Below, piece by piece: positions 4,818 through 24,320 of a stretch of 64,000 bases of DNA. Location of the stretch: positions 448,001-512,000 of the forward strand of contig CAWFFN010000007.1 in the NCBI GenBank assembly GCA_963815115.1, in the 5' to 3' direction. Both the position numbers and the translations under genes were made by a program. The notes beneath the pieces were generated by a model, which searched no databases, was not told the origin of the DNA, and saw only the letters and a list, made by a program, of their open reading frames with translations. Position 1 is the stretch's first letter; each line of letters opens with the position of its first letter. The stretch comes from an uncultured delta proteobacterium. GTDB taxonomy: Bacteria > Desulfobacterota > Binatia > DP-6.

Positions 4818-4885
4818 GAGAGACCCCGGCTGCGGCTTCTCCTACGGCAACGATCCGCGACAGCCAAGAACCGGAGGTGACCCGG

Positions 4886-6340: not shown

Positions 6341-6408
6341 CGCTTGGCGTGGAGAACAAGCCGGCGAGCGGATCGGGACGGCCGTCACACCCGCCGGTCG
6401 CGTCTCGA

Positions 6409-7305
6409 TCAGGGGCAGAACTTGTCATAGTACAGCAGGACCGGCGTACCGATCACGATGATCTCGCTGCAAGACGCCGCATGCAGACTGCAGATCATGC
6501 TCACATCCGCGAAGATGATGCACCCGCAGCTGGGATTCGCATCGCACGAGGCCTGGCACGCCCCGCGCGTCGTATCGAACATGACGCCAATCTGATGATT
6601 CTCCTCCGGGGAGCTGAAGTCGGCCCTGACGCCGCAGATCATCATCGTGGTGCTCGTGGTCGTCGACGTGGTGGTGGTCGTCGTCGAGCTGGTGGTCGTG
6701 GTGGAGGACGTCGTCGTCGTGGTGGAGGTCGTCCCGCCGCCGAGAACGTCGATCGCCGCGTCGGCCGTGGCCTCGACTGCAGCGCAGCTCGACGTCTGGG
6801 CCTGGCAGTCGCCCTTGCTCTTCGCCTTGCCGCACGCGGCGGTGAAGTTGCCTTCGCACTTCGTGAGCTTGGCGGGGTTGACGGCGCCGCCGGCCTCCTG
6901 CGCCGCGGCGTGGACCCTGAGCTTGCAGCCGACCTTCTTGCCGACGGCCCTCGTGACGGCGCCGTCGCATTTCGACGCCGTCTGCGTCGGCGTCCCCCTC
7001 AGCGCGTCGACCGCGGCATCCGCCGTGGTCTCGAGCTCGGGACAGCTCGATGCCTGCGCCTGGCAGCCGCCCTTGGCCTGCGCCTTTCCGCACTTGCCAG
7101 CGAAGGTCGCTTCGCAGCCGCTGAGCCTGCTCGTGTTCACGGCGCTGCCGGCTTCCTGCGCCGCTGCGAACGTCTTCAGCTTGCAGCGAACCTTCCGGGC
7201 CAGCGCCGTCGTGACGCGGGCGTCGCATTTCGACTGTGCCCAGGCGGCGCCTCCCAGCGCCAGCGAGAGCGCCACGAGCCCGCCGACCACAACCGTGTTT
7301 CGCAT
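6409..7305 (-). CDS. secreted Cys-rich protein: two tandem ~85-aa repeats, Thr/Ser linker, C-terminal PAN/Apple-like domain
   Basis: Signal peptide; repeated SKCD..CKL..AAAQEAG..CE..F...CGKA...G.CQAQ.SSC; TTSTTTT linker; CQASCDANPSC..F....CSL. Confidence 0.75.
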   Translation of the reverse strand: MRNTVVVGGLVALSLALGGAAWAQSKCDARVTTALARKVRCKLKTFAAAQEAGSAVNTSRLSGCEATFAGKCGKAQAKGGCQAQASSCPELETTADAAVDALRGTPTQTASKCDGAVTRAVGKKVGCKLRVHAAAQEAGGAVNPAKLTKCEGNFTAACGKAKSKGDCQAQTSSCAAVEATADAAIDVLGGGTTSTTTTTSSTTTTSSTTTTTTSTTTSTTMMICGVRADFSSPEENHQIGVMFDTTRGACQASCDANPSCGCIIFADVSMICSLHAASCSEIIVIGTPVLLYYDKFCP

Positions 7306-7554
7306 GGGCCGCCCCCCGTCAGATCGAATGCGATGGAGGGCGATAGCACGGCACGGCAAACGGAGGAAGCACCCTCGGAGGTTTCTGACAAATCGCGGGG
7401 TAGGCTCCCACCCCTACCTGCCGAACCTGTGGCAGAGCCGAGGCCGGGCTGCCGGAGCATCGGCCTTGCAGGGCACCGACCACCGAAAAGCGTAGGCTGG
7501 CGCGGCTTCTTCGACCGCCGTGCAGCGGGTGGGCAGGTCACTCCCTTCGTGCCC

Positions 7555-8031
7555 CTATCGTCCCTTCGGCTCCGCGGACGGCTGGTTCTTCCGCGCGAGG
7601 TGCAGGAGCGTCAGCTGGTGCTTGGCAATGCGTCCGCCCGGGCGCAGGGCGATCAACCGGCGCATTTCCGAGAACAGCCACGCCGTGGCGGCGAACACGA
7701 TGTCGAATTGGCGGCCGTGGCTCTCCCAGGCCTCGAAATTCGCCGTGACCACGGAAACGCGTGGGAAGGCCGAGAGCTTCTCGGCTGCGATGCGTGCGAG
7801 GTTCGGGCCGAGCTCGACACCGATGATCTCCGCGCCGCGCTGCGCGAGCGGCCCGGTCGCGTGGCCCGTGCCGCAGCCGATCTCGAGGATGCGCGCGGAC
7901 GCGGGCGCGATCCCTGCGAGCCGGAAGAGATCGTCGAACATCTCCTCGCGGTAATAGGGCCGCGCGCGATCGTAGAGCTCGGCGATCTGGTCGAAAGTCC
8001 GCGCGCGCGCGAGCCGGCGTTCGTCGTCCAC
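7555..8031 (-). pseudogene. class I SAM-dependent methyltransferase, C-terminally degenerate
   Basis: TFDQIAELYDRARPYY, ILEIGCGTG, FDIVFAATAW, then short and divergent. Confidence 0.65.
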
Positions 8032-8123
8032 GAGGGGACAACATACCTGCGGCGGCGGCCGGGTACACGCGCCGGGCAGATGGCTGGTGAGCACGAAGAG
8101 CGACCACGCCCTTCATGCTTCCG

Positions 8124-9245
8124 TTACGCCGGGTAGCGCAGGATCGCTGCCAGTGGCTTTCCGCCGGGGATGTCGGCCGCTCGCACGCCGAGCACCCGTC
8201 CACCGGACAGGATGACGCGGCGGGCAATCTCGTCGACGATGCCGTAGCCGCCCGGTCCCGGCGCGCTGGCGAGCGTGACGGCCCCGTCCGCGTCGGCGAC
8301 CGTGCCGGGGACGACGGCGTCGATGTCCACCAGCATCGTCTCCACCGCGCCGACCGTGGCGGCGCGGGCGGCGCCGTCCAGATCGGTCGTCGCCCGGCCC
8401 TGATTCTCGCGCGCCGCGAAGGTCGCCGCCCACGCCGCGATCTGTGTCCGGTACAGCTCGTCGAGGACGGTCCGCGCCCGTGCCGCCAGGTCGGCGTCCG
8501 TGAGCCTGTCCGGGCTGCCGCCGAGCGTGATCTCGGCAAGATGGGGATAGGTGTTCACCGACCGGTAGATCGACGCGAGCGGCTCCGTGGCGGCCAGCAC
8601 CAGGGGCACCTCGAGCCCCGCCAGCGTCTCACGCAGCGCCGTATCGACCTTGCGGGCGTACTGGCGCAGCCGCACCTTCTGGCCCTCCGATCCCTGGATA
8701 CGCCCGCTGGGCGACCGGTCGTTGAGCGTCGCCTTGCCGAGCGCACCGGCGGCATCCTTCGGCATTCCCTGGACGTTCACCGCGGTGGCGGGCAGATCGG
8801 CCGAGACCTCCACGAGGCGAACGGCGCCCTCCGCCAGCGCGAGCACGTAGCCGTTGTTCGGGAAGGTCGCCGCGCGCAGCAGCGGCTTCAGGTGGAAGCG
8901 GTCGGACACCACGACGGTGGGAGATAGGGTACTGGGCACCCGAAAGGTATGGAGGTGGCCCGGTGTCGCGAGCACGGCGAGGCTGTGCGCCTGGAATCGC
9001 CAGAACTCGTCATCGTCGACGAGGTCGTCGATCTGCTCCGACACGGCCGCCACCCGACGTTTGTCGGCTCCCGCCTCGGTGAGCTGGCGGATCGCCTCCT
9101 TGCCGAGATTCCTGAACTCGATCCGGTTCGCGTCCGTGTCCTGCGTCACTGGAGTGGTCGGAAGGTAGATGGACACGCACAGGTCGTCCCGATGAGACGC
9201 GAGGGCCTTCAGCTCGGCTGCGGTCGGGATGTCGACGTACAGCAT
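8124..9245 (-). CDS. bacterial archaeo-eukaryotic release factor family (baeRF11/baeRF3-like) protein
   Basis: MLYVDIPT, CVSIYLPTTP, VSDRFHLKPLLRA, ARAATVGAVETMLVDID, AAILRYP. Confidence 0.8.
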   Translation of the reverse strand: MLYVDIPTAAELKALASHRDDLCVSIYLPTTPVTQDTDANRIEFRNLGKEAIRQLTEAGADKRRVAAVSEQIDDLVDDDEFWRFQAHSLAVLATPGHLHTFRVPSTLSPTVVVSDRFHLKPLLRAATFPNNGYVLALAEGAVRLVEVSADLPATAVNVQGMPKDAAGALGKATLNDRSPSGRIQGSEGQKVRLRQYARKVDTALRETLAGLEVPLVLAATEPLASIYRSVNTYPHLAEITLGGSPDRLTDADLAARARTVLDELYRTQIAAWAATFAARENQGRATTDLDGAARAATVGAVETMLVDIDAVVPGTVADADGAVTLASAPGPGGYGIVDEIARRVILSGGRVLGVRAADIPGGKPLAAILRYPA

Positions 9246-9339
9246 CGCCCGATCGGAGCACGATCGTCGCGGACGTACAAGGGAGCCGAATCGCTCGCTA
9301 CGGAAGCGCCGCGGGCTGGCAGGGCCAGGACGAAATATC

Positions 9340-9503
9340 CGAACCTCGCCGCCGAGGGCCCGCCGGACACCGTGGCGCGCTCGATCTCGGGCCCCCGGAC
9401 CGCGAGCGTGAATGATCGGTATCAGATCACGCAGGAGGCGGCGAGGAAGGCCGCGCTGGCGGCGATGGCGGCGCGGATCGCGGAGCAGGTCCGGGGTTCC
9501 TGA
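9340..9503 (+). pseudogene. C-terminal remnant of a tyrosine integrase
   Basis: PDTVARSISGPRTASVNDRYQITQEAARKAALAA aligns with PDVVARTITGHRTASMQSRYNITQESAQRAALAA of the integrase ending at 21038. Confidence 0.8.
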
Positions 9504-9512
9504 CGAAGAGCC

Positions 9513-9534
9513 GCATGGACACCCTGCATGGACA
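9513..9534 (+). repeat. tandem arm-type integrase site pair (older element)
   Basis: GCATGGACA x2 at 13-bp period, between the integrase stop and the tRNA promoter. Confidence 0.55.
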
Positions 9535-9566
9535 TCGGTTTGGAACGAACGACCTCGGCCCGGTGG

Positions 9567-9595
9567 TTGACCCCCGAAAGGCGAGCGGCTACAAG
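9567..9595 (+). promoter_or_regulatory. sigma70-type tRNA promoter, copy 1
   Basis: TTGACC-N17-TACAAG, homologous to 21104-21131. Confidence 0.65.
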
Positions 9596-9608
9596 CACTT
9601 CCGCTCTT

Positions 9609-9649
9609 GCGGGTGTAGCTCAGTTGGCTAGAGCGTGTGCTTGCCAAGC
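9609..9649 (+). pseudogene. 5' half of tRNA-Gly(GCC); attL of the left element
   Basis: 41 nt identical to 21146-21186; identity stops 2 nt after the anticodon loop. Confidence 0.93.
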
Positions 9650-9747
9650 TGCTGAGGACCCGACCCGTAGCCGTCTAGAACCAGTGATAGCGGGGGCTTG
9701 CGCGTGGGTGCGTAGGCCACAGCAGGCCCCCGCTCGGCTACCGATCT

Positions 9748-9765
9748 GTTGACGCGCGTTGACGC
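9748..9765 (+). repeat. arm-type integrase binding repeats, left end
   Basis: GTTGACGC-GC-GTTGACGC about 100 bp from the core. Confidence 0.7.
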
Positions 9766-9795
9766 AGGCTGAGACGGGCGGCGGCGCGAACCAGA

Positions 9796-10189
9796 TCAGA
9801 AGGGGTCATTCCCACCCATCCACTCCCGCAAGCCAGGGGTCAACGAGTGGTTCGTCTTGCAGGTACGGCAGTGGAAGGTGTGCCTCGCCGCGTCGGGGTT
9901 TCTCGGCACCAGACTCCATCGGTCGTTCGCGGCACAGGAAGGACAGAAGGGGTGCGGCTCCGGGTTGGTCGCCGACGAAACCCCACGGGATGCCATCGAG
10001 GGGTTCGACATCGTGCGGCGTGAGGCCCCGCTTGCGTTGGAGGGCCGCGACCTCTGCTGAGAGCGTCTCCAGCTGCTGCTTCTGCTGGTCGATCTGCTTC
10101 TGAAGCTCGGCGAGTGTCTCATGAACCTTGACCCACGGACGGAACCAATCCCAGCCGCGTTTCACCCAGGCCACTGGCAAGAAGTGCAT
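9796..10189 (-). pseudogene. coiled-coil plus zinc-ribbon protein, one frameshift near 9960
   Basis: LAELQKQIDQQKQQLETL in one frame continues as PEPHPFCPSC...FHCRTC in the other. Confidence 0.6.
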
Positions 10190-10194
10190 TGCCC

Positions 10195-10623
10195 TCAGTG
10201 TCTCGTCACTGCGATCCCGATCTGGACGAGCATCAGGACAACGACCAGTACGTTGAGCAGCCAGACCCGTCGACTCAGCTGATTGCCGGTCTCAACCGTG
10301 CCGTTCAACGCCTTCGCCCCATCCCGAAGAGCGCCGGTCAGCGCGTCGAGCTGGCTGGTGGCGTCCGATGCTCCCTGCTCCATGGCCTTCGTCAGACCGC
10401 CGACTTTGCTGCCCAAGTCCATTAGGTTCGCGGAGACGGCGTGCGTCGCGCGGTTCAACTCTGAAGCCACCATCACCGCGAGTCGTGCATCCAACTCGGT
10501 TCTTCTCTCCTGCCCGAACGCGGTGGCAGGGGGGACCTGGCCGAGTACCTGCCGGATGCTGTCGGGCATTTCGTAGTCGTCAGGCAGCTTCGGCGCCGGC
10601 GGACTCTGGCGGTTGTCCGGCAT
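10195..10623 (-). CDS. hypothetical coiled-coil protein with C-terminal transmembrane helix
   Basis: AAAGGGGG RBS; helical repeats; VWLLNVLVVVLMLVQIGIAV. Confidence 0.6.
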   Translation of the reverse strand: MPDNRQSPPAPKLPDDYEMPDSIRQVLGQVPPATAFGQERRTELDARLAVMVASELNRATHAVSANLMDLGSKVGGLTKAMEQGASDATSQLDALTGALRDGAKALNGTVETGNQLSRRVWLLNVLVVVLMLVQIGIAVTRH

Positions 10624-10946
10624 GATCGATCCCCCTTTCGGTTCCTCGCTGGTAACGGCTAGGGCATGGCGAAGCTATCCCCCGGTCCATCTTCCACAGG
10701 GGCCCTTCGTTTGAGGGTACCTCTGCCGCGACGACTGTCTGGTCGGGTCGCTCGCCGCCGCGCCGCCTCCACCGTGCCCGGATTGGCCGACTCGGCGGCG
10801 AGCGCCCAACACCAAAACGAAACGCGGCACGCTGGGGTTGACCCGGCCCGTATGAGTCGTCGACCCTTTGCCTGAGCCGTGGCACCCCCCGCGACTCAAA
10901 CCGGCTGACAGTAGCGACCGGCAGAAATGGTCTCACAATCTGGCGC

Positions 10947-11033
10947 GGACCCCTTCCTAGCCGTCTAGACCCAATCCTGGCGGGGTTCCGCCGCGTGGCG
11001 CGCTGGCCACGGCAGACCCCCGTCGGCTACCGA
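10947..11033 (+). repeat. diverged second copy of the attL-adjacent arm sequence (9656-9744)
   Basis: Shared blocks GGACC, TAGCCGTCTAGA, GGCCACrGCAG, TCGGCTACCGA in the same order. Confidence 0.7.
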
Positions 11034-11433
11034 GTCACGGCGGCAGACGCGCACAACATCCTGCTGTTGAGAACGATAACCATAGGTTGCGACTTCGGCT
11101 GATCGTAGCCATCGAGTGATGGGACTGATGCCGGCGACTGAGCGCGCGCCGCACCTCTGCCCGAGTTCTGCGAATCGACGAGTTCCTGCGCTTCCGAGTG
11201 AGGCTCGATCGCGCGCCCGACGCGGTGGTGCCATGCCAGGGCTCGGTCGGCGCCCAACCGTCGGGAGGCCAGACACAACGTCACGGCGAACGCGACACGG
11301 TGTACGGACCGCCGCGACGCAATGTCGGCCAGCCGCACAAGATGGCGACGAGCCAAGGTCGATGCCGTCGCGTGTTCCCTCCGGACGCGCTGTGGCGTCC
11401 CGACCAGTCGCTGTGGCAAGATGACACGCGCGT

Positions 11434-12403
11434 ATGTGGCCCTGGTCGACCGCCAGGATATTCGTGAGCTATCGGCGTGGCTCCGCTGGAGGATGGACGC
11501 CGCGGCTAGTCGACACGTTGAAGCGGCGCATCGCGTCGAAGAGGATCTTCGTGGACGTCGAAGGCATCGAGGCCGGCGACGATTTCGCGAAAGTCATCGA
11601 GCGCGAAGTTTCGAGGTCGTCGGTCGTGTTGGCGATCATCTCCCCCGGTTGGAGCTCCATCGCCGACGCACAGGGCCGTCGACGCCTAGAGGACCCAAAG
11701 GACCTCGTTCGGATCGAGATCGAGACAGCCCTCGCGCATAGCATTCGGCTCATTCCGGTCCTCGTCGGAGGATGTCCTCCTTTGGTGGCCACCGACCTGC
11801 CCGAGTCAGTGCAGGCCTTGGCGGAACGTCACGCCGTCGAGATCAGCGACAAGCGGTGGAACTATGACTGCAACATTCTCGCCAGCGAGCTGGCGAAGCT
11901 CGTTCCCTTCAGGGTATGGAACATCCGACGTGCTGTGACGGTCGGTGTTTGCGCGCTCGTGCTCTTGGCCCTCGCAAGCATCTACGATGACAAGTCGACC
12001 CAGCCCCCCGTATCGAGGCCGACAAACCAATCGCGCGACGCGTCGCAGCCGAGCTTGCCGCACCCTGCAGTTCCGCCACCATCCATTGGAATTGACGCAC
12101 GAGCTATTGACGCAGCCGCCCGTGCACGGGCCAATGACGCGGTCCGCCGTGCACAATCGGCAGCTGGGAGGGCAGCGGAGGCCGGGTATCTGCCTGAGCG
12201 CATTGGACACGGTGTCCGATTACGCCAAGAGCCTTGGACGCCAGTCCGTTGTCGACGCGGATGAGGCTGCCAGAAGCGCCGTCGCCGCAGCCGAGCAGGG
12301 CGGCCCCGACGCGCCCGGCGTTGCCGAGTCCGCAGCCACGAGAGCCGAACGCGACGCTGCGCGCGTCAACAGTCTGCTCGAGCAAGAGATGGATCGACGC
12401 TAA
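11434..12403 (+). CDS. TIR_2 domain + transmembrane helix + helical C-terminus (frameshift near 12190)
   Basis: IFVSYRR, IFVDVEGIEAGDDF, VVLAIISPGW, DLVRIEIETAL, RLIPVLV; TM AVTVGVCALVLLALA. Confidence 0.85.
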
Positions 12404-12800
12404 CGCCTGTTCGATCAAGAGACAGGTCGAAGGTCTCTCCGCTGAGTTCCGGCGGTTCGTCGCTAGCCCTTCCCTAGCCCACCCCTAGCCCAGGATCATC
12501 ACCATGCCCAATCGGCGGGACCGCAACCGCATCGACTCGGATATCCGTCTCCCACGACGCCGTTCTCGTCGTCATCGAGTTGCCATCAGACCGTCGATGC
12601 TGATCCCGCTGGTTGCCCGAGTTGCTCGGCATCCCGGAGACTGAGGCGTTGCAGCTGCTCGATGACCTGGAGGCTGTGGGGCTGCCTCGTGAGCGCGACG
12701 GGGCCGGTGCAGTCGAGAATGCGTGCCAGCGATGCCGCGAAACTCTGGGTCGGCGGTTAACGTTGCTCGTTCGGTGGTCGGCCGGTAGGCTCAGACTCCA

Positions 12801-13685
12801 GTGCCCACGACGCCACCGCGTGACCTGCTCGACCGCGACTTGAGCAAGGCCCAGATGCGGGAGGCCATCGAGGTTGCCGTTCCGCTGCTCCAAGAAGTCG
12901 TGAACCATGGTGTGGCGGTACTGGCCCGTTGCCTTCCCGTGGTAAAGGACGAGGAACACCACCTCGCCATCCTTCTACTGTACCGGCATTTCCTGGAGAT
13001 GGTCGACGGCGTGGAAGTGCTCCTGGGGGCGCCAGCCAGCAGCGCGGCTCAACTGTTACTTCGGAGCGCCTTCGAGTTCATCCGCCATCAAGTACATGAT
13101 CGACGCAGACACGCAGCGCCGCGCCTTTGCTTACCTGGCTGCCCAGGCACAGCGCGAGATAGCGGCGCTGTGCACAGTGACGAAGAAGTACCCCGACCTT
13201 GTTGAGGCGAAGCACGTCGCCGAGAACATGATGACGTTCCAGGACCGGCTCGATCGACCAGGATGGCGGGAGGCGAACGAGGAGTTGCTGCGACTCGCCA
13301 GGAACGCGCTCGAAGAACGGGAAGGTTCGCACTAGTCCACTGGTTTTCCGCGTGGGGCGGTCCAGGTACGCTCGCGGACCTCGCCGGGCGACTCGGCACG
13401 GCGAAGGCGAGGGAGTACGACATACTCTACCGTCAGTGGTCAGCCGTCGTCCATGCCGGCGATATCGAGAGCAACCTGAAGAGAGGGCCCAGTGAGAGCA
13501 TGGTCATCCGGCGCCTACGTCTGTCTGTCGACTTCGGCGGGATAGTAGACTTCGCAGTCAACTTCGCCTACGAGACGGCCCGCGATGTACTTTCCCTCTA
13601 CCGCCCAGGCGAAGAGCGCGCGCTTGCCGAGTGGTTCCTTCGCGAGGTTCGTGACCGACGCAACCGGCTCACTGGCACGGCCTGA
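12801..13685 (+). pseudogene. DUF5677-like protein, two frameshifts
   Basis: LLLRSAFE (RxxxE) and YRQWSAVVH (YxxxSxxxH) motifs spread over three consecutive frames. Confidence 0.65.
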
Positions 13686-14384
13686 TTGGTTACGCAGGGA
13701 GATTCCCGGAGGGATCCGCGCCGACTCGACGCGCACCGGAACCCTCTGACCGCCGCCGCGTGGCTGTACGGGGATCCTCAGATCCAACCAGGGGCATCCT
13801 CGTCGGGGGGATGGACGTGCCACCCACGCCTCAGCGGGCCGCAGCGCCCGCCTGGCGCGCGCTGGGGGCCGTGTTGCGCGCGGTGCTTGCGTGTCTACGT
13901 CAGCGGGACCTCGGCCTCGACCTCGGCGTAGTCTCGCGCCCGAAGCGCCGCATGCGGCCGTACGGCCGGGCGGCAGATGCACCCGGCCCGGCGCCTCCTC
14001 GTCGGGGCCAGGACGCCGGGGACGTGCACGGCACGACCACCACCACGGTGGCGCCGTGACGGCCATCATCGCCGCCCCGCTGATCGACCCGCGCTATGCG
14101 CTGGTGATCGCGGTCGCCCTCTTCGCCTGTGCCATGGCGGCGATCGGGGCCGAGCGAAAAAATATCAGCGTTCTACATGCGGGGCGCCCGCGTACCCGGC
14201 TATCTTGAGTCGTAGACGTGCGGGATGGAAGAAGACCGGGCCCATGGGCCCTGACGGGCAGTAGGGTGATGGGAGATAAGCCTCCCCTTGACAGAATGAC
14301 AAGAAATTCCTTCCACTACGGCAAGGCCGGGTTTGTTAAGAGCGCACATGCCAAGGTCGACCGGGCCCTCACGGGTCGGGCGGG

Positions 14385-14441
14385 CTGGACGTCGACGACA
14401 ACCTGGACGTCGACAACAGCCCTGGACGTCGACCGACAACC
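14385..14441 (+). repeat. three tandem 18-19 bp repeats (iteron-like)
   Basis: CTGGACGTCGAC at 14385, 14403 and 14422. Confidence 0.7.
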
Positions 14442-14951
14442 CACCTCCGTCATCGAGCGCCGGTTGGAACCGGACGCCCGTCAGGAATGCCCCTGGTACG
14501 CACACAGACGGCCGGAGACGCGCTTGCCCGTACGGGCCGGATTCGTCGCCTGGCCGTTGGCCCAGGAGGGCCGCAAATGGCCCCGGTGCTAGACAGGATC
14601 TCTCCTGCCGTAGCAGATACTGCATGCTGGCTGGGTGCTGTAGAGGCCTCGTGTAGCCCTGCGCGGCCGTAGGCCGGGTCATCCGTCCAGCCTGGGCGTG
14701 GGAAAGGCCGAAAACTGCCCGCGCATCGCGAAAGGGAATGCGTGAGGGGCCAGCCGCCATCGGGACCGAACTTCGAGAACCGACCCGGACCCCCACCCCC
14801 GGCCGTACGGGCCGTGGTTCCGGTGAGCTGCCTTGCTGCGGTAGTACCTTCTCCGCATCGTGTGCATCTGCAAGAATTCTTCTTGCCAGGTATACCCCGT
14901 TTGGGAGGCCGGAGCTTTACATTAGACGCTAGTCTGTGGTAAACGGAGGGC

Positions 14952-15693
14952 ATGACAACACGGTGAAAGCGATAGGGTACTGCGCGTCTAGACGACGCGC
15001 AGGGCAGCAACGGCGGCGGCCTCGCTGCACAACGCGAAGCGATCACGCGGCTAGCGGACGCACGCGGATGGCAGCTGGTAGAGGTGGTCGAGGACGTCGG
15101 CGTGTAGGGCAGCGTGCGCTGGCGATCGCGCGCCGGGGCACGGGCGCTGGCACTGCTCCGGGATGGGGGCGCTGACGTGCTGGTGGTCAGCAAGCTAGAT
15201 CGCTTGTCGAGGTCTGCCACGACCTCGCCGGGCTGCTCGAAGAGAAGGCGAGACGTCGGAGGATAACGGAAGCGCCGGGGTGAGTACACCAGCTGGCGCC
15301 TGGTGTCGGCGACCTCGGCGAACTTGATATGACCACGCCCGTGGGGGAACTGGTCGCGAACGTCCTCGGCGCGCCAGCCGGATGGAACGGCGCATGATCG
15401 GCGTGAGAACGAGCGAAGCCTACGGGCAAGCAGCAACGCGCCGGGCTGCGTCTGGGCAGTGCACGGCGATGGCAGACGAGACGCGGGCGCTCGTGTTGTC
15501 GCTCTACGCGAAGCACCGGGGCTGGTCGGCGTGGGCCTCGGCGCTCAACGAGCGCGAGGTACGACGGCGAGCGGGGGCGTGCGGTGGTACCGAGCAGCGT
15601 GCGCAGCGTCGTGCTGGCGGCCAGCGCGACGTGCAGCGTTGCGGCCAGCACCTCGGCGCCGTCGGGACGACTGGCGCGGCTACATGCGCGTGA
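14952..15693 (+). pseudogene. serine recombinase/resolvase, multiply frameshifted
   Basis: GGAGGG RBS; KAIGY, LAAQREAI, VLVVSKLDRLSRS, DMTTPVGELVANVLG, ERRMIGVRT across frames. Confidence 0.8.
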
Positions 15694-16492
15694 CCCTTGC
15701 TCGGTGTCTCGGTCGCGGGTAGCGCGTGGGTCTCTGCCTCCTCTGTAGTGGCACTACGGCTCATGGCTCATGACCCATTCGCTCTACGGGCGCGTCGCTA
15801 AGTGCCTGATAACGCTTGCCTGTGACCCACCGTTCTCGCTGGCAAACCCCCACGGCTCAATAGGCTGGGATGTGCGGCGAACGCGCGTTCTGAAGACACA
15901 TAGGAGGGTCCACCATCGGCCTAGATTTCTCGGTCCATGGTCCGCTGACTTCGAGGTCTGGTTGACAAGGTGCTTTGGCGGCGATCTGGAGGCGTCGGTC
16001 GGCGTAGTCGAGGTGGCGCACCAACTGTCCGCTCGTCCGCGAGAGGACAGTGTCCGGCGACCCGTGGAAGACGAGAACGCTCGCGACGGGCAGGTGGAAG
16101 CGGAGGTGGACATGAGGACGAGAGCGGGGCGCGGGTTTCTCCCTGACGTCCGATGTGGCTCTGGTAGCTCAGGTCTCGATCAGTACGGTGCTGAACGCAG
16201 AACGACCGGGGCGAATTGATCCCGGTCGGGTCGAATACTACCAAAAGGGCTTCGCATTTTCGATCGGGTCGAGGTGCGCTGCTGGACGGCGGCACGGGCC
16301 ACTGGTGGTGAGGGGGTGTGATGGCGATGTGGAACGACAACGAACCGACGACGCGACCTGGCGGCGCTCCCGGCCGAGGCTGAGCAACTCAAGGCCGAGA
16401 GGCCCATTGGCGAACTGTATGGCAGGCCGAGGAGCGCGCCCGCAAGCAGGCGCGAGGCGGCGGCTTGTCGGGCAGCGGAACTGGCGACGCGC

Positions 16493-17492
16493 GTGGAGCG
16501 ACTGCGCGACACAGCGATGCCGCTCCTGCCGCACCTCACGGCGGACCAACTCACCGGCACATTCGAGCCGGTGTTTGTGCAGCTGCTCGATCAGTTGGAG
16601 GAAGACGCCGCCTGGGACGTTGATACCGACGCCGTCGGCGAGCTGCGATGGGAACTCGGGGGCGCGTACAAGCGGCGCCTGAAGGTGGTGCAGGACGCGG
16701 ACCAGAAGCGCCTGAAGGTGGTGCAGGACGCGGCACGCGTCGCGGACTTGGAGGCCGCCATCGCGCGGTTCAGCGCACATGTGTTCGCACCCGATGCCCA
16801 TCGGCAGCCGTGGTGGTGCACGTTGGTCTTCGAGGCCCGGTACCTCAAAGACGATTGCGGTGCGCTCCCCGTGGAGCAGGACCGCACACGGTTGCTGCAG
16901 GCACTGCAGCCGGCCAGGCTGCGGGTCGAGGAGCAGGAGCAGCGCGCCAAGCAGGACGCCGCAGCGGTCGAGCTGGAGGCGTGGCGCACCCGCGCCGTGA
17001 CCTGCTCATGGATCCCGGACCTATGCTTCCTCGATGCGGTGCCGTGCGACTACAAGGCTGCCTGGCGCCAGATCGATGATCTGCCCGCTGCGCAGGTGCT
17101 CCGGGGCTTGCGTGACTGGAGCGTGTGGAAGTCGTTCCCGCTCGACGCCTTCAGGGTGGTGCGTGACTACATGAACCAGGCTATCCGCCGGCCAGCGGAT
17201 CATCGTCGCTGGGACTGGCCCGCTGACGCCGAGACCGGGGCGTTCGATGCGCAGGGCCGGCCGTTCCCGCACAAGTTCGGATTTCTGGCCGTGCTGCGGG
17301 CGGTGGCATGGCAGCGCGGGATCGGCACCGCCGAGGCGGCGTGGAAATGGGACCAACGACGCCGGGCGAAGGTGAAGGTCGCCGCCATCTGCGGCGGCGT
17401 GTGCCGCGCCTGCGGTGCGCCGGAGGCGGATGCCGTCGAGCCCTTGGAGTTAAACCACCTCCTGTACGGCCAAGGTGGTCAGAAGCGAAAGG
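16493..17492 (+). pseudogene. phage-type protein with C-terminal HNH-like start, interrupted by IS3 (true start probably upstream)
   Basis: CGGVCRACG...LELNHLLY immediately before the IS inverted repeat; internal 33-nt tandem duplication at 16675-16733. Confidence 0.5.
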
Positions 17493-18754
17493 TGGTCTTG
17501 CCCGTCCGGGCGAACACCTGAGTTAAGCCGCTGCGCGGCGATTCCAGTATCGGTCTCGTAGTCGACGGGGCTCATCATGTCGATGGCTGAGTGCGACGCT
17601 GGCGGTTGTAGACGGCTTCGATCCAGTGAACGGTCGCCGTACGTGTGCGAGCCGGGTCGGCTATGACCGGGGCTCGATCAGCGGAGCTTGTAGGTCGCGA
17701 AGAAGGACTCGGCGAGGGCGTTGTCCAGCAGACGCCGGTCTTTCCCATTGACTGTTTCACGCTGTGCGCATCGCACAGTGCCCGGAACTCGGCCGAGGTG
17801 TATTGGCTTCCCCTGTCCGAGTGGAAGATAGACACCTCAACGTTTCCGCTGCGCGTAGCGACGGCCATCATCAACGCATCGCACACGAGCGATGCGCGCA
17901 AGTGACCGGCGAGGGAGAATCCGATCACGCGACGCGAGAAGACGTCGATGACCGTCGCCAGGTACAGCCAGCTCTCCCACGTGCGGATGTAGGTGATGTC
18001 GCTGACCACAGCATGTCGGGGGACGGCGCTTCGAACTTCCCATGCACGAGATCGGGGATCGCCGGCGGTGTCGGTTCCGGTGTCGTCGTACGGACAGCGC
18101 GGTGGGCGACGACCTCGCAGGCTCGCTGCCTTCATCAACCGCGCTACGCGCTTGCGGCCGACCTCGTGGCTCTGGGCCTGCAACTCAGCCAGCACGCGGG
18201 GCACGCCGTATTGGCTGTCCGACGCCGCATGGATCGCCTTGATCTTCGCCAGCAGTGCCGCATCGTCTCGTTCACGCTGCGACGGCGGCCCGTCCTGCCA
18301 CTCGTAGTAGGCGGTGCGGGAGACCTGGGCGATCCGGCAAAGCTGCGTCACCGAATACCGACGACTCTCCGCCTCGACGAACCGGTACCGGCTCATCGGG
18401 TCTCCATCGCGAAGAAAGCCGCCGCCGCTTCAAGATGTCGCTCGTCGCGGAGCACCGCACCTCGCGCTGCAACGCGCAGCTCCTCGCGCTCCTCGGTCGT
18501 CAGCCCTCCCGTTCGCCGCGTCGACCGCACCTGCTCGACCAGCGGCGCACCGCTGTCTCGCTCAGGTCCATCTCCCGACAAATCGTCGGGATCGTCCGGT
18601 CACTCTGACGCCAAGGCGACGACTCGGCTTGAACGAACTCGTGAACGATCGCTGTGGGCGGCGACTCGCTGCCTTGCCTCCACTTCTTCCGCATCGAACA
18701 CCTCCTCGTGGGCTCACGCCACATCTGGGGTGTTCGCGGTGAGGGGCGAGTAAG
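17493..18754 (-). mobile_element. IS3-family insertion sequence, degenerate (ends approximate)
   Basis: OrfB YGVPRV, VGRKRVARLM, SDITYIRT, YLATVIDVFSRRVIG, FHSDRGSQY; OrfA AAAFFAMETR; imperfect IRs sharing GCGAACACC. Confidence 0.88.
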
Positions 18755-19000
18755 GTCAAGACGGACAAGTTGCGGAGCGACTCATCACGCATGCCGCGAC
18801 ATGGGGGACCGCTGTGGTGGGTCGAGCTGCTGTGCAGCGATGCATGCCATCAGACGGAGGCCAACGGGCCGGTGTCGTGTGGGGGCGACGCTCGATATGT
18901 GCGGACCGGCGAGCCACGCGGGTGATGACTTCCCGAGGGCTTGGCTTGCACGGTGCCTGTCGCGGCGCGCACGGCCCGGCACCGGCCCGTAGGGGCGGTT

Positions 19001-19089
19001 AGGCGTCAGGCATGAGGTTGTACTTGCAAGCAAACTGGGTAGTCAGGATGGAGTACCCTGACTATAACCCCCTCGCAATCCTGACGCCT
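19001..19089. mobile_element. 89-bp MITE-like inverted-repeat element
   Basis: Terminal AGGCGTCAGG/CCTGACGCCT; internal TAGTCAGG...CCTGACTA hairpin; lower GC than flanks. Confidence 0.6.
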
Positions 19090-19171
19090 CAGTGAACATG
19101 CCGAAAGGACGCGGGAATTGACCATCTGGGCACATCTGCGCTTCCGGTCCACCTCGGACTGCCTGACGTGC

Positions 19172-19330
19172 TCACATGCCATAGCACGTTGTGTCCGCGC
19201 GCGGGTCGATCGCCGAATGCATGTACTTCGACTCGATGTCCGAGTTGATGGACTCCGACTCGGTCGGCTCGACCGACGGCCAACCGCCCGCGCTGAGCCT
19301 TGGCGCGGAGCGCGTGAAGTCCGGCCACGG
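19172..19330 (-). pseudogene. possible XRE-type HTH repressor remnant
   Basis: LHALRAK...ADRVGVHQ plus SDIESK in an adjacent frame; divergent from xis/int. Confidence 0.3.
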
Positions 19331-19383
19331 GACTGACGCCTGCCGAAATTCCTGCAGGCCACACACGCGATCCCGGCCACGGG

Positions 19384-19419
19384 GTCGCCTCGCAGATGCG
19401 TCGTCAGGCGGCTTTTTTT
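19384..19419 (+). terminator. intrinsic terminator/attenuator upstream of xis-int
   Basis: GTCGCCT...AGGCGGC stem followed by TTTTTTT. Confidence 0.55.
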
Positions 19420-19462
19420 GCGGGGCGTAGCGAAACCGGCGACTACCCTATCCTCGTAGGTA

Positions 19463-19838
19463 GTGAAGACCGAACGAATAGGCAGCCGCCTGCGCCGCTG
19501 CCGACCGTCGCGGACATCGACCACTTGCCGCTGGCCGAGTTGCCGGCGTTGCCAGCGCGATGTCGGCGCTGCTCGCGTACATCACCCTGCGGCTGCGGTC
19601 GTTGGTGACCGACCACGGCGACGACTGCGACGTGTTCGACGTCGTGGAGGCCGCGCGTCGCATCGGCTGCAGCGAGGACGTGCTCCGCGAGCACGGCCAG
19701 ACGTGGGGCGTCGCGCTCGTGTTGACGCGGGACAAGAACGGCAGGCCGACCCGCGTGGTCTACCCTCGCGCCTTGGTGCGGGCGTACCTCGAACGGCGTC
19801 TGCCGAACATGCCGGCGACAACGTCGGCAGCCGCGTGA
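19463..19838 (+). CDS. excisionase-like HTH protein (5' part frameshifted)
   Basis: FDVVEAARRIGCSEDVLRE HTH, directly upstream of the integrase. Confidence 0.6.
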
Positions 19839-19890
19839 TAGCTCGGCGGCACGGGCGTCGAGACCGACGGCCCGCAGAAGGAGGAACGAC

Positions 19891-21038
19891 GTGATGGCGA
19901 AGAGATCGAAGCTGCCGCCGGGCCTGTACCGGCGGCGGAAGCGCGACGGCACCCCCGGAGAGGTGTGGTGGTTCTGGTACCGGCCGCCGGGGAGCAAGCG
20001 CGCGGTGCAGATGAGCACGCGCACGGTCGACCTCGTCGAGGCGGAGCACTTCATGCACCGCAAGCTGGCCGAGGATACGCAGGCCCGCGCCGCGCGGATC
20101 GTTACGGCCTCGGTCACGGTGGCCGACGCGCTGGCGCTGCTCCGGAAGCACCGCGACGCGCGTGGTACCGCGATCCACCGCGCTCTCTACGCGGGCTTGC
20201 AGCACGCACTGGGGCATCTACTCGTCGGTGATCTGCGCCCCGTCCACCTCGATGACCTGTGCGCCAGGTGGCGGGCCGTGGCATCGAGTACCCGGACCGC
20301 GACCTGAAGAGGAACCCGCAGCACTCCGTCAGCGGGACGACGTGCAACCACGGCATGCGGATGCTCCGTCTGGCCCTGCGGCTCGCGTCCGTCAAGCTGG
20401 CGGTGCCGTTGCCGCCCGGCCTCGGCGACCCGCTGGCGTACCCGAAGTTCTCGGAGCCGATCACCGGCCAGTACATCCCGCCGGGTGACTTCTACGCCAT
20501 CCTGAGCCACATCGACGCGGGCCCGAAGCAGGCCCTGACCGAGGTTGCATACCTGACCGGAGTCCGGAAGGGCCAACTCCGGAAGACCGAGATACGGAAC
20601 GTCGCGTGGAGCGTGGCACCGTGACGGCGTTGGTGTGGGACTTCGGCAAGGTGAAGAACCGGCGCGAGCACGTCGTTGCCTGGCAGGCAGGGCGCAGGAG
20701 ATCATGCAGGAGTTGTGGAAGGGCCGGCGCCCCGGCTGCCCGATCTTCCACCTCGACGGCCGGTCGGTCGGGGAGCTGCGGAGCGAGTGGGAGCGCGCCT
20801 GCACGGCCGCAGGCTTCGCCGTGGGCCGGAAGGCACACGGCTTCGTCTTCCACGACACGAGGCGCTGCGGCGACCACCAACATGTCGGCCACCGGGCACG
20901 CCGGACGTCGTCGCGCGGACCATCACGGGGCACCGGACGGCGTCGATGCAGTCGCGCTACAACATCACCCAGGAGAGCGCCCAGCGGGCAGCACTCGCGG
21001 CCGTCGACCGCCTGATCAAGGCCGGGCGGGGTGCCTGA
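19891..21038 (+). pseudogene. tyrosine recombinase/integrase, about 4 frameshifts
   Basis: AAGGAGG RBS; N-terminal arm-binding-like domain; AYLTGVRKGQL, VKNR, FHDTRR, TGHRTASMQSRY catalytic motifs. Confidence 0.9.
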
Positions 21039-21050
21039 GATGCCCGGTTT

Positions 21051-21072
21051 GTTGACGCACGCGTTGACGCAC
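21051..21072 (+). repeat. arm-type integrase binding repeats, right end
   Basis: GTTGACGCAC x2 at 12-bp period. Confidence 0.7.
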
Positions 21073-21103
21073 GGGGTGGAACGGACGACTTTGGCGCTCC
21101 AGC

Positions 21104-21131
21104 TTGACCCCGCAAAGGCGAGCAGTACAAG
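21104..21131 (+). promoter_or_regulatory. element-borne sigma70-type promoter for tRNA-Gly
   Basis: TTGACC-N16-TACAAG, ending 14 nt before the tRNA. Confidence 0.6.
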
Positions 21132-21145
21132 CACTTCTCGCTCTT

Positions 21146-21219
21146 GCGGGTGTAGCTCAGTTGGCTAGAGCGTGTGCTTGCCAAGCACAAGGTCGTCGGT
21201 TCGACCCCGATCACCCGCT
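21146..21219 (+). tRNA. tRNA-Gly(GCC), CCA not encoded
   Basis: Cloverleaf GCGGGTG/CACCCGC, GCTC/GAGC, TGTGC-TTGCCAA-GCACA, GTCGG-TTCGACC-CCGAT, discriminator T. Confidence 0.97.
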
Positions 21220-21400
21220 CTTACGAAGTCACGGACTTAGGTGGTTGGACCAGTGCCAGGGACCTCCGGGGTTCCTCTTCGCCATCGAGTTCGCTTCGAT
21301 GATTGGCTGAGTCATGAATCTGAGCGTGCCGGGAGGCGGATCGGTCTCGCCGTCGCGGCCCGCGAGCGGCGCGGCACCGTGGCAGATCGGGCGGCGGCAC

Positions 21401-22439
21401 TCACAGGACGCACCTCACCTGCGGCGGGAGCAGCTGGCGGCGCACCAGGTAGAGGTTCGCCAGCGCGAAGAGGCTGAAGGCCCGCGCGAGGTTCTTGGCG
21501 AGGCCGCGATACCGGACCTTGGCAAATCCCCACAGGCGCTTCACCACGTGGAACGGATGCTCGCCGCGGGCCCGGGTCCGCGACCGGGCCCGATTGATCG
21601 CCCGCCACCGCGGGGTGAGCGGCCGGTGCGGACCGGCGGCCCGCCGATTCACCCGATACCGCACGCCCTGGGCTTCGAAGACCTGCCGATCTGCTTCCTT
21701 CCAGTACGCCTGGTCGCCGTAAAGGACGCGTTCCGCACCGTGCAGCAGCTGCGGGAGCTGGGTGATGTCGGCAACCGCGGCATGCGTCGCGGTCACGCGG
21801 TGGACGCGCCCTTCGGATCGGTCCCGACATGCAGCTTCATCCCGAAATGCCACGCGTTCCCTTTCCGCGTCTGCTTCATCTCGGGATCGCGCGCCTGGGC
21901 GGCATTCTTCGTCGAGCTCGGGGCGGTGATGATGGTCGCGTCGACGATCGTCCCGCTCTGCAGCAACAGCCGCTTCGCGGTGAGCAGCTCCTTGACCGCG
22001 GCGAAGAGCGCGGCGGTCAGCCGGTGCTGCTCCAGCAGGTGACGGAAGCGCAGGATCGTCGTCTCGTCCGGGACCACGTCGTCCCCGAGCTCCACCCGGG
22101 CGAACCGCCGCATGGCCTCGCTGTCGTAGAGCGCGTCCTCCGCCTGCGGGTCGGAGAGATTGAACCACTGCTGCAGGAAGTAGATCCGGAGCATCTTCTC
22201 GAGCCCCAGCGGCTGCCGGCCGCGGCCGGCCTTCGGGTAGTAGGGTTCGATCACCGCGAGCAGCTGCGCCCAGGGGATCACGGCGTCCATCTCGGCGAGG
22301 AACTGCTCACGCCGGGTCACCTTGCCCTTCTGGCTCCACGCGATCCCAGCGAACGTCCGCTGCTCACCCATCCCCAACCTCCCGCGCTCGCTCGATACGT
22401 CCCGCTTCTACCCCATCGAGCGACTTGCGCAGAGCTTCC
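21401..22439 (-). mobile_element. IS5-family element; transposase frameshifted near 21810, one end not found
   Basis: TRREQFLAEMD, MLRIYFLQQWFNLSDP, PDETTILRFRH, GTIVDATII, WHFGMKLHVG, EHPFHVVK; IR GGAAGCTCTGCGCAAG next to CTAA. Confidence 0.9.
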
Positions 22440-22484
22440 CTAACTGCAGTCGTGCATCGCCCGCGCGGCGACCGCGTCCCGGGG

Positions 22485-22517
22485 TGGGCACAATCTGGGC
22501 ACAATCTGGGCACAGTC
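22485..22517 (+). repeat. three 11-bp tandem repeats (arm-type site-like)
   Basis: TGGGCACAATC, TGGGCACAATC, TGGGCACAGTC. Confidence 0.75.
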
Positions 22518-22619
22518 GATGCCGTTACGGAAGGGCAGCGGGCTGGTAGATGCGCCGGGCAGATGGCTGGTAGGTACGAAGGACGAATACGCCCTTCGTG
22601 CGTCCTAATCCTCTCCTAA

Positions 22620-22816
22620 TCTGCAGCTCTGCCGTCCCGACGGCGCCCGGCTCGAACGAGTGCTCCTGCACCGGCGGTCCTGCGCCGTGCCAGATCGCCG
22701 GCATCGGGCCCGACGGTCCGACGTGCGGCGGGACCTGTCCGGAGGGACAGACGTGCCAGGTCGTCGATACCTTTCCGATCCCAGGGTGCCCGCTCCATCT
22801 CTGCGGCTGCCAGTAG
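22620..22816 (+). pseudogene. orphan 3' fragment of a Cys-rich secreted protein, paralogous to 23450-23653
   Basis: CSCTGGPAPC...TCGGTCPEGQTCQ...CGCQ stop; no start or RBS. Confidence 0.7.
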
Positions 22817-22909
22817 CGCCGCGTCGGTCGCGCCGACCAGCGCGGCCGCTGGCGCTCGCGGCTCGACCTCTTGACAGATTCCGATCGCGAGGCGCAGAGA
22901 GGGGTCGCC

Positions 22910-23653
22910 ATGTCGGCGCGCTCGGGCTTCCCGGCGGCGATGTTGATCGTGGCGGTCGCCGTCGCGGTGGCGGAGGCCGACACCCCGCCGGCGGATCACC
23001 TCCAGTGCTACGGCGTGCGGCGCGATCCACTCCAGCTGCGGGCGCTCGTCGACCTCTTCTCGAGCCAGTACGGGCTCGCCCCCGGCTGCAGGATCCGGAA
23101 GAGCGCCGTCGAGTTCTGCGTTCCCGCGAGCAAGACCGTGCGCGAGGCGCAGGACGGCGGCACGCGCCCGCCCACGCCGATCACGCCGCTCCCCGGCGTC
23201 GGCGCGCCCGCGGCCGGCGACTACGTCTGCTACAAGGTGTCCTGTCCGGACGAGCAGCTGCCAAAGGAGCAGCCGGTGACGGACCAGTTCGGCGGCCGGA
23301 CGCTGGGGCGATTGCGGACGACGAAGCTCTGCACGCCGGCGGTGAAGGGCACGACGACCAGCAGCACCACGACCACCACCACCAGGTGCACTCAGCCCAC
23401 CACGACAACGAATCCGCCGTGCGGCGAGGTCGGCTGCTTCGGCTGGTGCGCGAACGCGCAGTTCTGCGTGTCGACCGGCCCGACCGCGTCGGACTGCGCG
23501 TGCACGGGCGGCCCCCGCCCGTGCGCGTTCACCGGCCCCGGTCCGGACGGCGGCCTGACGTGCGGGGGTACATGTCCGGAGGGGCAGACGTGCCAGCCGA
23601 TCGACACGGATCCGTCGCCGGATTGCGTCTTCCTGTTCTGCGGGTGCCAGTAG
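22910..23653 (+). CDS. secreted Cys-rich protein with Thr linker
   Basis: Signal peptide; DHLQCY, FCVPASK, DYVCYKVSC, VTDQFG, KLCTPA; TTTSSTTTTTT; Cys-rich tail. Confidence 0.8.
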   Translation: MSARSGFPAAMLIVAVAVAVAEADTPPADHLQCYGVRRDPLQLRALVDLFSSQYGLAPGCRIRKSAVEFCVPASKTVREAQDGGTRPPTPITPLPGVGAPAAGDYVCYKVSCPDEQLPKEQPVTDQFGGRTLGRLRTTKLCTPAVKGTTTSSTTTTTTRCTQPTTTTNPPCGEVGCFGWCANAQFCVSTGPTASDCACTGGPRPCAFTGPGPDGGLTCGGTCPEGQTCQPIDTDPSPDCVFLFCGCQ

Positions 23654-23660
23654 CCGCCGC

Positions 23661-23790
23661 TCAGCCGCCGACCAGCGCGGCGGCGCGCTCGAAGCACCAG
23701 AACGCGACGAGCGAGCCGATCGCGTAGATCGGCACGAGCCGCGCCCACCCGGGCGGCGCGGCGACGGCGCGACGGAACGCGCAGGGGCGC
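23661..23790 (-). pseudogene. orphan C-terminal fragment of a HupE/UreJ-family membrane protein
   Basis: PPGWARLVPIYAIGSLVAFWCFER; upstream sequence is unrelated phage-like DNA. Confidence 0.6.
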
Positions 23791-23830
23791 AGCTGTGACG
23801 GCAGCAGGTGTTCGTACTCGAACTCGACGC

Positions 23831-24152
23831 TCACCCGTGGACCTCGATCAACGCGAACGAGGTTGTCGCCGATACCGCCGCGCTGGTCTCGATCCGGACC
23901 TGGGAGGATGGCGGATACACGACCACTCCCCACGCGCCGTTCGTGCCCGAGAACATCGCCTGCGACGTCACCGAACTCCAGGGATCGAGATAACGGAGCC
24001 AGGCGCCACCAATGATCGGCTGGAACGCGGCATACCACGTGTTCGCTGCCGCCGAGCTGACGCCAACCAGCAGCGCGCGGTCAGTCGCTGCTAGGGTGAA
24101 CGCCGACGACACGGTCTGTCCGGCGACGACAGTGCCGTAGAAAGACCGCCAT
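23831..24152 (-). CDS. small beta-rich phage-like protein (frameshift near the start)
   Basis: ATG at 24152 just after the upstream stop; YGTVVAGQTVSSAFTL...QVRIETSAAVSATTSFALIEVHG. Confidence 0.5.
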
Positions 24153-24153
24153 G

Positions 24154-24318: not shown

Positions 24319-24320
24319 GT

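Follow-up and report, generated by a model that had tools for sequence, protein, structure and literature searches.

A tyrosine-integrase element remnant that probably supplied the promoter and 5' half of a single-copy tRNA-Gly gene, with two generations stacked at one locus

Introduction

Where does the DNA upstream of a working tRNA gene come from when the front half of the same gene, behind a similar promoter-like sequence and the end of a related integrase gene, stands a second time 11.5 kb upstream? The question is raised by a tRNA-Gly(GCC) gene in a 64-kb stretch of DNA from an uncultured delta proteobacterium of the class Binatia (assembly GCA_963815115.1, contig CAWFFN010000007.1, positions 448,001 to 512,000), here called the window and numbered from its first letter. 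ARAGORN and Rfam both find one tRNA in the region, tRNA-Gly(GCC) on the + strand, and tRNA was the sole Rfam match over 1-30000. The gene is single-copy: genome G000, to which the window belongs and which is rated 100% complete, has 1 GCC tRNA-Gly among its 60 tRNAs, and three tRNA-Gly-derived copies occur in the whole genome. Here, we argue that the DNA between the two copies of the front half, island B, is very probably the fixed remnant of a tyrosine-integrase element whose attachment site (attP) at tRNA-Gly(GCC) was reversed, and that two generations of such elements are stacked at the locus.

Results

A duplicated module bounds island B

The features on which the argument depends are as follows.

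9342..9503, + strand: generation-1 relic, the last ~55 integrase codons, with its stop at 9501-9503 (tblastn with the intact relative P0003, and translation)
9514..9534, + strand: putative generation-1 arm-type doublet, CATGGACA twice (9514 and 9527), the only 2 matches in the window
9567..9595, + strand: generation-1 promoter-like pair, TTGACC (9567), 17 nt, TACAAG (9590), 13 nt before the tRNA fragment
9609..9649, + strand: displaced tRNA-Gly 5' fragment, bases 1-41, attL, with the core GCTTGCCAAGC at 9639-9649
9650..21145, no strand: island B (generation 2), 11.5 kb, bounded by a 48-nt repeat and absent from the relative G003
9748..9765, + strand: putative P'-arm doublet, GTTGACGC twice (9748 and 9758), 99-116 bp from the core
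19894..21038, + strand: tyrosine integrase pseudogene of island B (three-frame reading, tblastn with P0003)
21051..21070, + strand: putative P-arm doublet, GTTGACGC twice (21051 and 21063), 106-125 bp from the core
21104..21131, + strand: probably element-borne promoter-like pair, TTGACC (21104), 16 nt, TACAAG (21126), 14 nt before the tRNA
21146..21220, + strand: intact tRNA-Gly(GCC) (ARAGORN, Rfam)
21221..26842, no strand: conventional (3'-side) island remnant, with an IS5-type transposase and a terminase gene
26843..26889, + strand: displaced tRNA-Gly 3' fragment, beginning at the same 11-nt core (repeat family D7)

A repeat search showed that 9602-9649 and 21139-21186 form a 48-nt exact direct repeat (family D13) made up of tRNA bases 1-41 and the 7 nt of leader before them. 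The left copy breaks off at the core GCTTGCCAAGC, which is the 7-nt anticodon loop with two stem bases on each side, and the right copy extends into the complete tRNA; the repeat itself ends 2 nt beyond the anticodon loop. The displaced repeat of island B is, as a result, the 5' part of the tRNA and not its 3' part. Upstream of the repeat, both copies have the same order: integrase end, 8-mer doublet, a shared GGAACGNACGAC stretch, TTGACC and TACAAG separated by 16-17 nt, and a leader of 13-14 nt. The two modules can be aligned and are diverged, with ~70% identity over the final 60 nt and 43% across the arm region. Their integrase stops (9501-9503 and 21036-21038) close homologous C-terminal peptides, PDTVARSISGPRTASVNDRYQITQE and PDVVARTITGHRTASMQSRYNITQE, and the stop of the island B integrase lies 108 bp before the start of the intact tRNA on the same strand.

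There are 8 matches of GTTGACGC in the window against 3.18 expected, and four of these form the doublets that sit at both ends of island B. A doublet resembling this pair is kept in contig C18 of the relative G001. Doublets of the CATGGACA type are also found after the intact integrase of the metagenome locus L057 and in the G001 relic, and other family members have different doublets at the equivalent position. Their placement suggests that the doublets are arm-type sites of a lambda-type attP, which would be bound by the N-terminal domain of the integrase.

The earlier note on this DNA, made from the sequence alone, had claimed that the module occurs twice in diverged form with an identical tRNA part, that the first copy stops at the anticodon core while the second continues as the intact tRNA, and that one doublet recurs inside both island ends. 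Our repeat search and alignments bear this out, and they support its structural reading of an element in two generations that carries an integrase gene (int), arm sites, a promoter-like pair and a tRNA 5' half.

On the other side of the tRNA, 21221-26889 is a conventional 3'-side prophage remnant that uses the same 11-nt core. Similarity of its 3' tRNA fragment, which the earlier note had missed, extends to 26905 (94% to 21176-21238; family D7). No match to the integrase family was found by tblastn within 21221-26842, and no integrase is left there. With this remnant on one side and island B on the other, the working tRNA is flanked by islands of both polarities that share one core. In tblastx comparisons of the flanks with the loci of 6 relatives, no synteny was found right of the tRNA or between pgsA, the upstream host gene, and the relic; the boundary between host and island at 26889 is therefore set by the repeat.

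As a separate observation, the element-side DNA just past the 5' fragments has the short motifs GCGACCACC and CCGTAGCCG in common at window 9650-9690, L043 5814-5850 and L083 681-720, in elements on tRNA-Gly and on tRNA-Leu. These motifs may represent an element-side core-type site.

The integrase of island B is a pseudogene

The island B integrase is a pseudogene with no intact reading frame. The interval 19894-21038 is readable as a tyrosine integrase of ~380 aa only with about five frame changes, and a one-frame reading contains three in-frame TGA codons. P0003 matches the interval in tblastn with an E of 2e-61, its high-scoring segment pairs falling in two frames, and its matches in the window are confined to 9342-9437 and 19906-21023. 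The generation-1 relic is 69% identical to P0003 residues 326-357 by tblastn. As the window fragments alone have no Pfam match even at E 1, identity was set through tblastn and through intact relatives: the integrases of P0003, P0019 and L057 score 42.7-49 bits against PF00589 (cut-off 27.1), with 46 bits for L057. The motifs AYLTGVRKGQL (box I Arg), FHDTRR (HxxR) and RYNIT (RY) can be read across the frames of the pseudogene. In the family alignment A2, residues R218, H317, R320 and Y352 (P0003 numbering), which we take to be the catalytic R..HxxR..Y residues, are invariant.

A terminator-like hairpin with a T-run at 21029-21045 overlaps the integrase stop just before the arm doublet, and it might insulate the tRNA promoter from int transcription. 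The open reading frame (ORF) 19482-19835, whose position had suggested a xis-like gene, has no family match and was set aside.

A model for the chimeric tRNA gene

The arrangement can be explained if the integrase recombined at the anticodon loop of tRNA-Gly(GCC) and its attP was built the opposite way to the usual one. The integrase-proximal arm would supply the arm-type sites, the promoter and tRNA bases 1-41, and integration would move the host promoter and 5' half away to the other end, where they would form attL (9609-9649). The working gene at 21146-21220 would then be a chimera, with promoter and 5' half from the element and the 3' half from the resident gene. Strand exchange presumably took place inside the 7-nt loop, with core sites in the stem halves and arm sites in the doublets. 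The displaced 'host' copy would itself have been left by an earlier member of the family, represented by the relic at 9342-9649.

Two consequences follow from the geometry. Since the displaced fragment is the 5' part, the element would have to bring the 5' part together with upstream signals. Since integration of a circle puts the left arm of attP beside the right-hand copy, the DNA upstream of the working tRNA would have to be the element's own, and the orthology of the left copy in G003 and G001, described below, agrees with this origin.

The promoter-like pair is conserved in diverged modules

As the tRNA is single-copy, the DNA upstream of it, whatever it is, must drive its expression. We suggest that the TTGACC/TACAAG pair does so and that the element may in this sense control tRNA expression, as the earlier note had proposed. 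Both hexamers and their 16-17-nt spacing are retained in eight diverged modules in which the spacer varies, and hexamers and spacing are conserved in G001, G003, G010, G011 and L057. Decay of the family can be arranged as a series that ends at the promoter: an intact int (L057), a pseudogene (window, right), a 55-aa relic (window, left, and G001), arm and promoter (G003), and finally the promoter only (G010, G011).

It could be argued that the structure is as described and that the tRNA is expressed by upstream read-through or from another start, TTGACC/TACAAG not being a promoter. Such a view would find support in the simple sigma-70 consensus scan, which calls neither copy of the pair because the -10 hexamer TACAAG lacks the final T, and the hairpin upstream of the pair is also counted on its side. 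We find it unlikely, given that hexamers and spacing are kept while the spacer changes, that decay halts just upstream of the pair in G010 and G011, and that the native promoters of relatives share the layout, with a -10 that ends ~15 nt ahead of the tRNA.

Relatives retain the native and the empty site

The gene pgsA (3147..4085, + strand; CDP-alcohol phosphatidyltransferase, Pfam PF01066, E 6e-38) is the ancestral upstream neighbour of tRNA-Gly(GCC), the tRNA lying ~55-65 bp past the pgsA stop in 5 relatives. It was present in 26 of 26 genomes searched, with tRNA-Gly(GCC) within 1.5 kb at 14 of 25 relatives' loci, and the upstream DNA was read for nine relatives, eight of them from the family of the window (f1).

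Five of the eight f1 relatives (G002, G005, G006, G012 and G013) show the native state, in which the pgsA stop is followed by ~55 bp with TTGACT/A..TATC and then by the tRNA, with no insert. This is the empty pgsA-tRNA-Gly locus that the earlier note had proposed to look for, with a different, native promoter right after pgsA; one of the five, G002, is of the same genus as the window. The other three (G003, G010 and G011) have a promoter of the type TTGAC..GAAAGGCGAGCGG.TACAAG. In the class sample of 401 genomes this element-type pattern occurs in 5, all of family f1 (G000, G001, G003, G010 and G011), and in 4 of the 5 it is accompanied by 0.86-17 kb of DNA between pgsA and the tRNA. When the N-terminal integrase fragment was searched against the 401 class genomes, G000 and one weak match, in G006, were returned.

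In G003, again of the same genus, an orthologue of the left module (91.5% over 9522-9649) leads into a complete tRNA. This arrangement is the attB expected before the arrival of island B, that is, the empty site, and the right-hand promoter copy is absent from the island-free relatives. G001 has the same relic (90% over 9469-9662), and its 5' fragment breaks at ..CCAAG| into unrelated DNA. The intact tRNA of G001 is on a separate contig behind a B-like module (79.7% over 630 nt), which is accompanied by an internally deleted element and a further relic. The locus is a hot spot of repeated 5'-side use. We also noticed that the D-loop of this working G001 tRNA-Gly(GCC) (C18, L133, reverse strand ~3303-3376) is one base shorter (TTGGTAGAG) than that of the window.

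The relatives bear on a second alternative, in which promoter and 5' half are host DNA, the adjoining integrases come from elements that end elsewhere, and nothing is donated. What speaks for it is G011, where the same promoter type directly follows pgsA and no trace of an integrase is found. It is nevertheless very improbable: the native promoter of G002 contrasts, within one genus, with the element type and the inserts of G000, G001 and G003; the right-hand copy is unlike the left copy's orthologue in G003 and G001, as expected if the island brought it; and the module accompanies intact integrases in unrelated contigs. A weaker form, that the element-type promoter was native in some lineage and was then captured by the family, is possible in view of G011.

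The module recurs at other tRNAs

When 1.84 billion (1.84e9) representatives were searched with the N-terminal 135 aa, 27 proteins matched at E up to 0.001, and a scan of genome contigs found only 4 distant loci. Metagenomes were scanned with four aligned full-length relatives, which gave 35 loci. The closest, L057, has an intact integrase (74% identical to P0003) followed, in order, by the int stop, CATGGACAC / CCATGGACAC twice, TTGACG, 17 nt, TACAAG and tRNA-Gly(GCC). It is the module of the window with the arm doublet of the window's older relic, and it supplies the homologous integrase with arm doublet, promoter and tRNA that the earlier note had proposed to search for.

The 5' geometry, or a relic with a 5' fragment, was found at 10 of the 35 metagenome loci, at tRNA-Gly, tRNA-Leu(CAG) or tRNA-Arg(CCG). 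The remaining 25 comprise 9 conventional loci, 1 unplaceable locus (L071), 2 with a non-adjacent tRNA and 13 with no tRNA in the contig DNA. In L071 (22-842) an integrase C-terminus is followed 336 bp on by a reverse-oriented tRNA-Leu 5' fragment (bases 1-42), which fits neither polarity.

Far-end 5' fragments, the other expectation of the earlier note, were found in two further, independent members and bear out the polarity there. In G596, tRNA-Arg(CCG) has an intact 384-aa integrase on its 5' side, and its bases 18-42 recur 5.7 kb upstream as an exact 25-nt copy that ends at loop+2 and is preceded by N bases. In L083, a relic, promoter and tRNA-Leu bases 1-40 are separated by 4.6 kb from a second relic, promoter and whole tRNA, which is the same two-generation picture as in the window. 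The module recurs on three tRNAs (Gly, Leu and Arg).

These junctions allow a third alternative to be weighed, namely that the island arrived by RecA-type homologous recombination between a ~300-bp module on a circle and the resident relic module, with no integrase exchange at the loop. The modules are indeed homologous over ~300 bp and have 48 exact bases in common. Outside the 48 nt, however, identity is just ~40-70%; at four independent junctions on three tRNAs (window, G001, G596 and L083) the break is no more than 1-2 nt from the anticodon loop; the 3' fragments begin at the same core; and matched doublets lie around the core at lambda-like distances. We give this alternative very little credence. 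A misassembled left copy, produced by collapse or duplication of a repeat, is scarcely credible, as the orthologous junction (relic, promoter, 5' fragment and foreign DNA) was assembled independently in G001, the same architecture was assembled in L083 and L082, and the sequence on both sides of 9649 is unique.

Polarity is polyphyletic in the integrase clade

To place the reversed polarity in its clade, we took 30 loci with clade members from a phylum sample of 401 genomes. A tRNA follows the integrase within 435 bp at 23 of the 30, in 21 cases with conventional and in 2 with 5' geometry. A tree was built from 50 integrases, leaving out the window pseudogene; 33 are labelled for polarity (7 for 5', 26 for 3'), and the label of L103 depends on one ARAGORN tRNA-SeC call. 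At least 5 changes of the label are needed on the tree, 4 of them forced by branches with Shimodaira-Hasegawa-like approximate likelihood ratio test (SH-aLRT) support of at least 95, and a single 5' clade is rejected by the approximately unbiased (AU) test (p 0.0009). Polarity is polyphyletic in this clade.

On the tree, the 5' members at tRNA-Leu(CAG) (L062 and L065) have as sisters 3' members at that tRNA (L058 and L059). The integrases of L062 and L059, which lie on opposite sides of tRNA-Leu(CAG), are 66% identical over 403 aa, and the two have similar arm motifs (GGGCACGAC and GAGCACGAC repeats) and similar arm-to-core distances. Bases 1-40 in the tRNA-Leu 5' fragment and bases 32-86 in the 3' fragment have the loop in common. 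As an observation beside this comparison, at L059:4371-4490 the tRNA-Leu(CAG) has an intact conventional integrase on its 3' side and, on its 5' side, a relic of a 5'-type module (arm repeat, promoter and integrase end), so this tRNA carries both polarities, as does that of the window.

Other features of the window

The remaining features are listed here; most ORFs of island B have no match in Pfam, PHROGs or PADLOC.

4089..9341, no strand: variable DNA from pgsA to the older relic, with TetR, MAPEG, methyltransferase and baeRF genes (Pfam)
11425..12261, + strand: TIR-domain cargo ORF (Pfam PF13676, E 6e-11; no PADLOC family)
17578..18429, - strand: IS3-type transposase (rve and HTH_21) inserted in island B (Pfam; PHROG 157)
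21404-22407, - strand: IS5-type transposase (Pfam PF01609/PF05598)
24509-26278, - strand: terminase large subunit gene (PHROG 2 and 9, E 3e-18)

PADLOC found no family among 39 ORFs of the islands and left flank, and PHROGs on 60 ORFs matched the two transposases and the terminase only. The G+C content of island B is 0.66, against 0.70 in the flanks. The interval 4089..9341 had no tblastx match to the same interval in 6 relatives and is probably cargo remaining from earlier insertions. Bacterial eRF1-like (baeRF family 11/8) domains are encoded at 8127-9251 (- strand). A search of 40 relatives found the baeRF gene in only 2, so the 5 kb from pgsA to the relic is variable DNA as well.

A ~72-nt direct repeat (8051-8122 and 22534-22605, 81% identity) overlaps the start of the methyltransferase gene with one copy and adjoins the IS5-type element with the other; a third copy (86%) is in G001 contig C18. 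It may be the end of an insertion sequence (IS) or a small mobile repeat. Long overlapping ORFs that match no family contain short periodic repeats of 12-18 nt (6642-6735) and a 249-nt tandem pair (6728-6976 and 6986-7234, 72%). The 60 tRNAs listed by ARAGORN for G000 include tRNA-Pyl(cta), tRNA-SeC and tRNA-Asp(atc).

Discussion

We have described a tRNA-Gly(GCC) gene whose upstream DNA would derive from an integrated element with a reversed attP. This explanation draws on the repeats and their geometry, on the empty and native sites in relatives, on the membership of the integrase in its family and on the recurrence of the module elsewhere, all of which were observed. Several findings weigh against it. 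The island B integrase is broken by about five frame changes, and there is no 5' fragment at the left end of generation 1. The sigma-70 scan called neither promoter copy, a consensus that may not fit the promoters of this organism, and in G011 the element-type promoter lies ~33 bp past the pgsA stop with no relic or insert. L057, L054, L055, L062 and L074 have no far-end 5' fragment in the 2.5-10 kb of contig DNA upstream of them, most metagenome contigs being too short to include both element ends. In the phylum sample the wider clade is mostly conventional, with the 5' geometry in only 2 of 23 tRNA-adjacent integrases. The search for sequencing runs returned no RNA run. One public soil-metagenome run, containing 7% of the sampled words, gave scattered low-depth pieces and IS copies over 9000-27500; most of island B was uncovered and no contig bridged a junction, a result too sparse to speak to presence, excision or expression.

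If the reading holds, an essential single-copy tRNA gene can have its promoter and front half replaced for good by a mobile element, and the last ~100-300 bp of the element would then persist by hitch-hiking. One locus displays the empty site (through relatives), the native promoter, two stacked generations and an island of opposite polarity. For annotation, 5' tRNA fragments, in addition to 3' ones, would mark island ends, and the family offers integrase/attP pairs that would place cargo upstream, rather than downstream, of a tRNA.

The polyphyly of polarity, together with near relatives on both sides of one tRNA, provides a tractable system for what sets the polarity of integration. At somewhat less than even weight, we put forward that the side of the tRNA that is replaced is a labile trait that has flipped several times, that the 5' members form a promoter-replacing ratchet, and that a composite circle with the whole tRNA is possible. 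In such a ratchet every insertion would retire the prior promoter and 5' half, and decay may leave just the promoter of the last element, permanent for an essential single-copy tRNA. Where both polarities surround one tRNA, as in the window and L059, the outer half-sites could recombine and so mobilise the whole tRNA gene on a composite circle. A literature search whose coverage did not extend to the Williams-lab island papers returned no statement that polarity switches repeatedly within an integrase clade or that near relatives approach one tRNA from both sides, and a search of PMC12884075 and PMC9897764 found no passage on 5' versus 3' use.

Comparison with known systems

Island B resembles conventional tRNA integrases in that its core consists of the anticodon loop and a few stem bases, its int lies beside attP and is transcribed towards it, and arm-type repeats stand between the int stop and the core. 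It differs in that the core and tRNA half point the other way with respect to int and the arm sites, and in that 5' half and promoter are replaced instead of the 3' half. Conventional integrases are reported to cross over in the anticodon loop (Williams 2002, NAR 30:866) and to carry the 3' part of the tRNA gene. The remnant at 21221-26889 fits that kind.

An integrative element with reversed target-gene orientation was reportedly described by Zhao & Williams in 2002 in J Bacteriol 184:859. Like island B, that tyrosine-integrase element is said to lie on the 5' side of a tRNA gene and to displace the 5' part of the gene.

Section 7 of PMC6563490 presents recombination at the 5'-distal part of tRNA genes as the rarer polarity, citing Zhao & Williams 2002 and four archaeal studies of viruses and plasmids (Krupovic & Bamford 2008; Krupovic 2010; Gaudin 2014; Cossu 2017). 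As far as that section describes them, the archaeal 5'-distal elements have the same rarer polarity as island B, in archaeal hosts. According to Farrugia et al. 2015 (PMC4482086), the islands of dusA-specific integrases integrate at the 5' end of the gene; this system is like island B in its 5'-end integration and unlike it in having a protein-coding target and a different integrase family.

The claim of the earlier note that the usual carriage of the 3' part is reversed stands for this family, though as a kind the arrangement is not new, the rarer polarity being already in print (PMC6563490). The window is a new and unusually well-supported example of a known polarity, not a new kind. What island B adds to the element described in 2002 is a documented family of integrases with arm doublets, elements stacked in generations, relatives that show the empty site and the native promoter, and a conventional island across the same tRNA.

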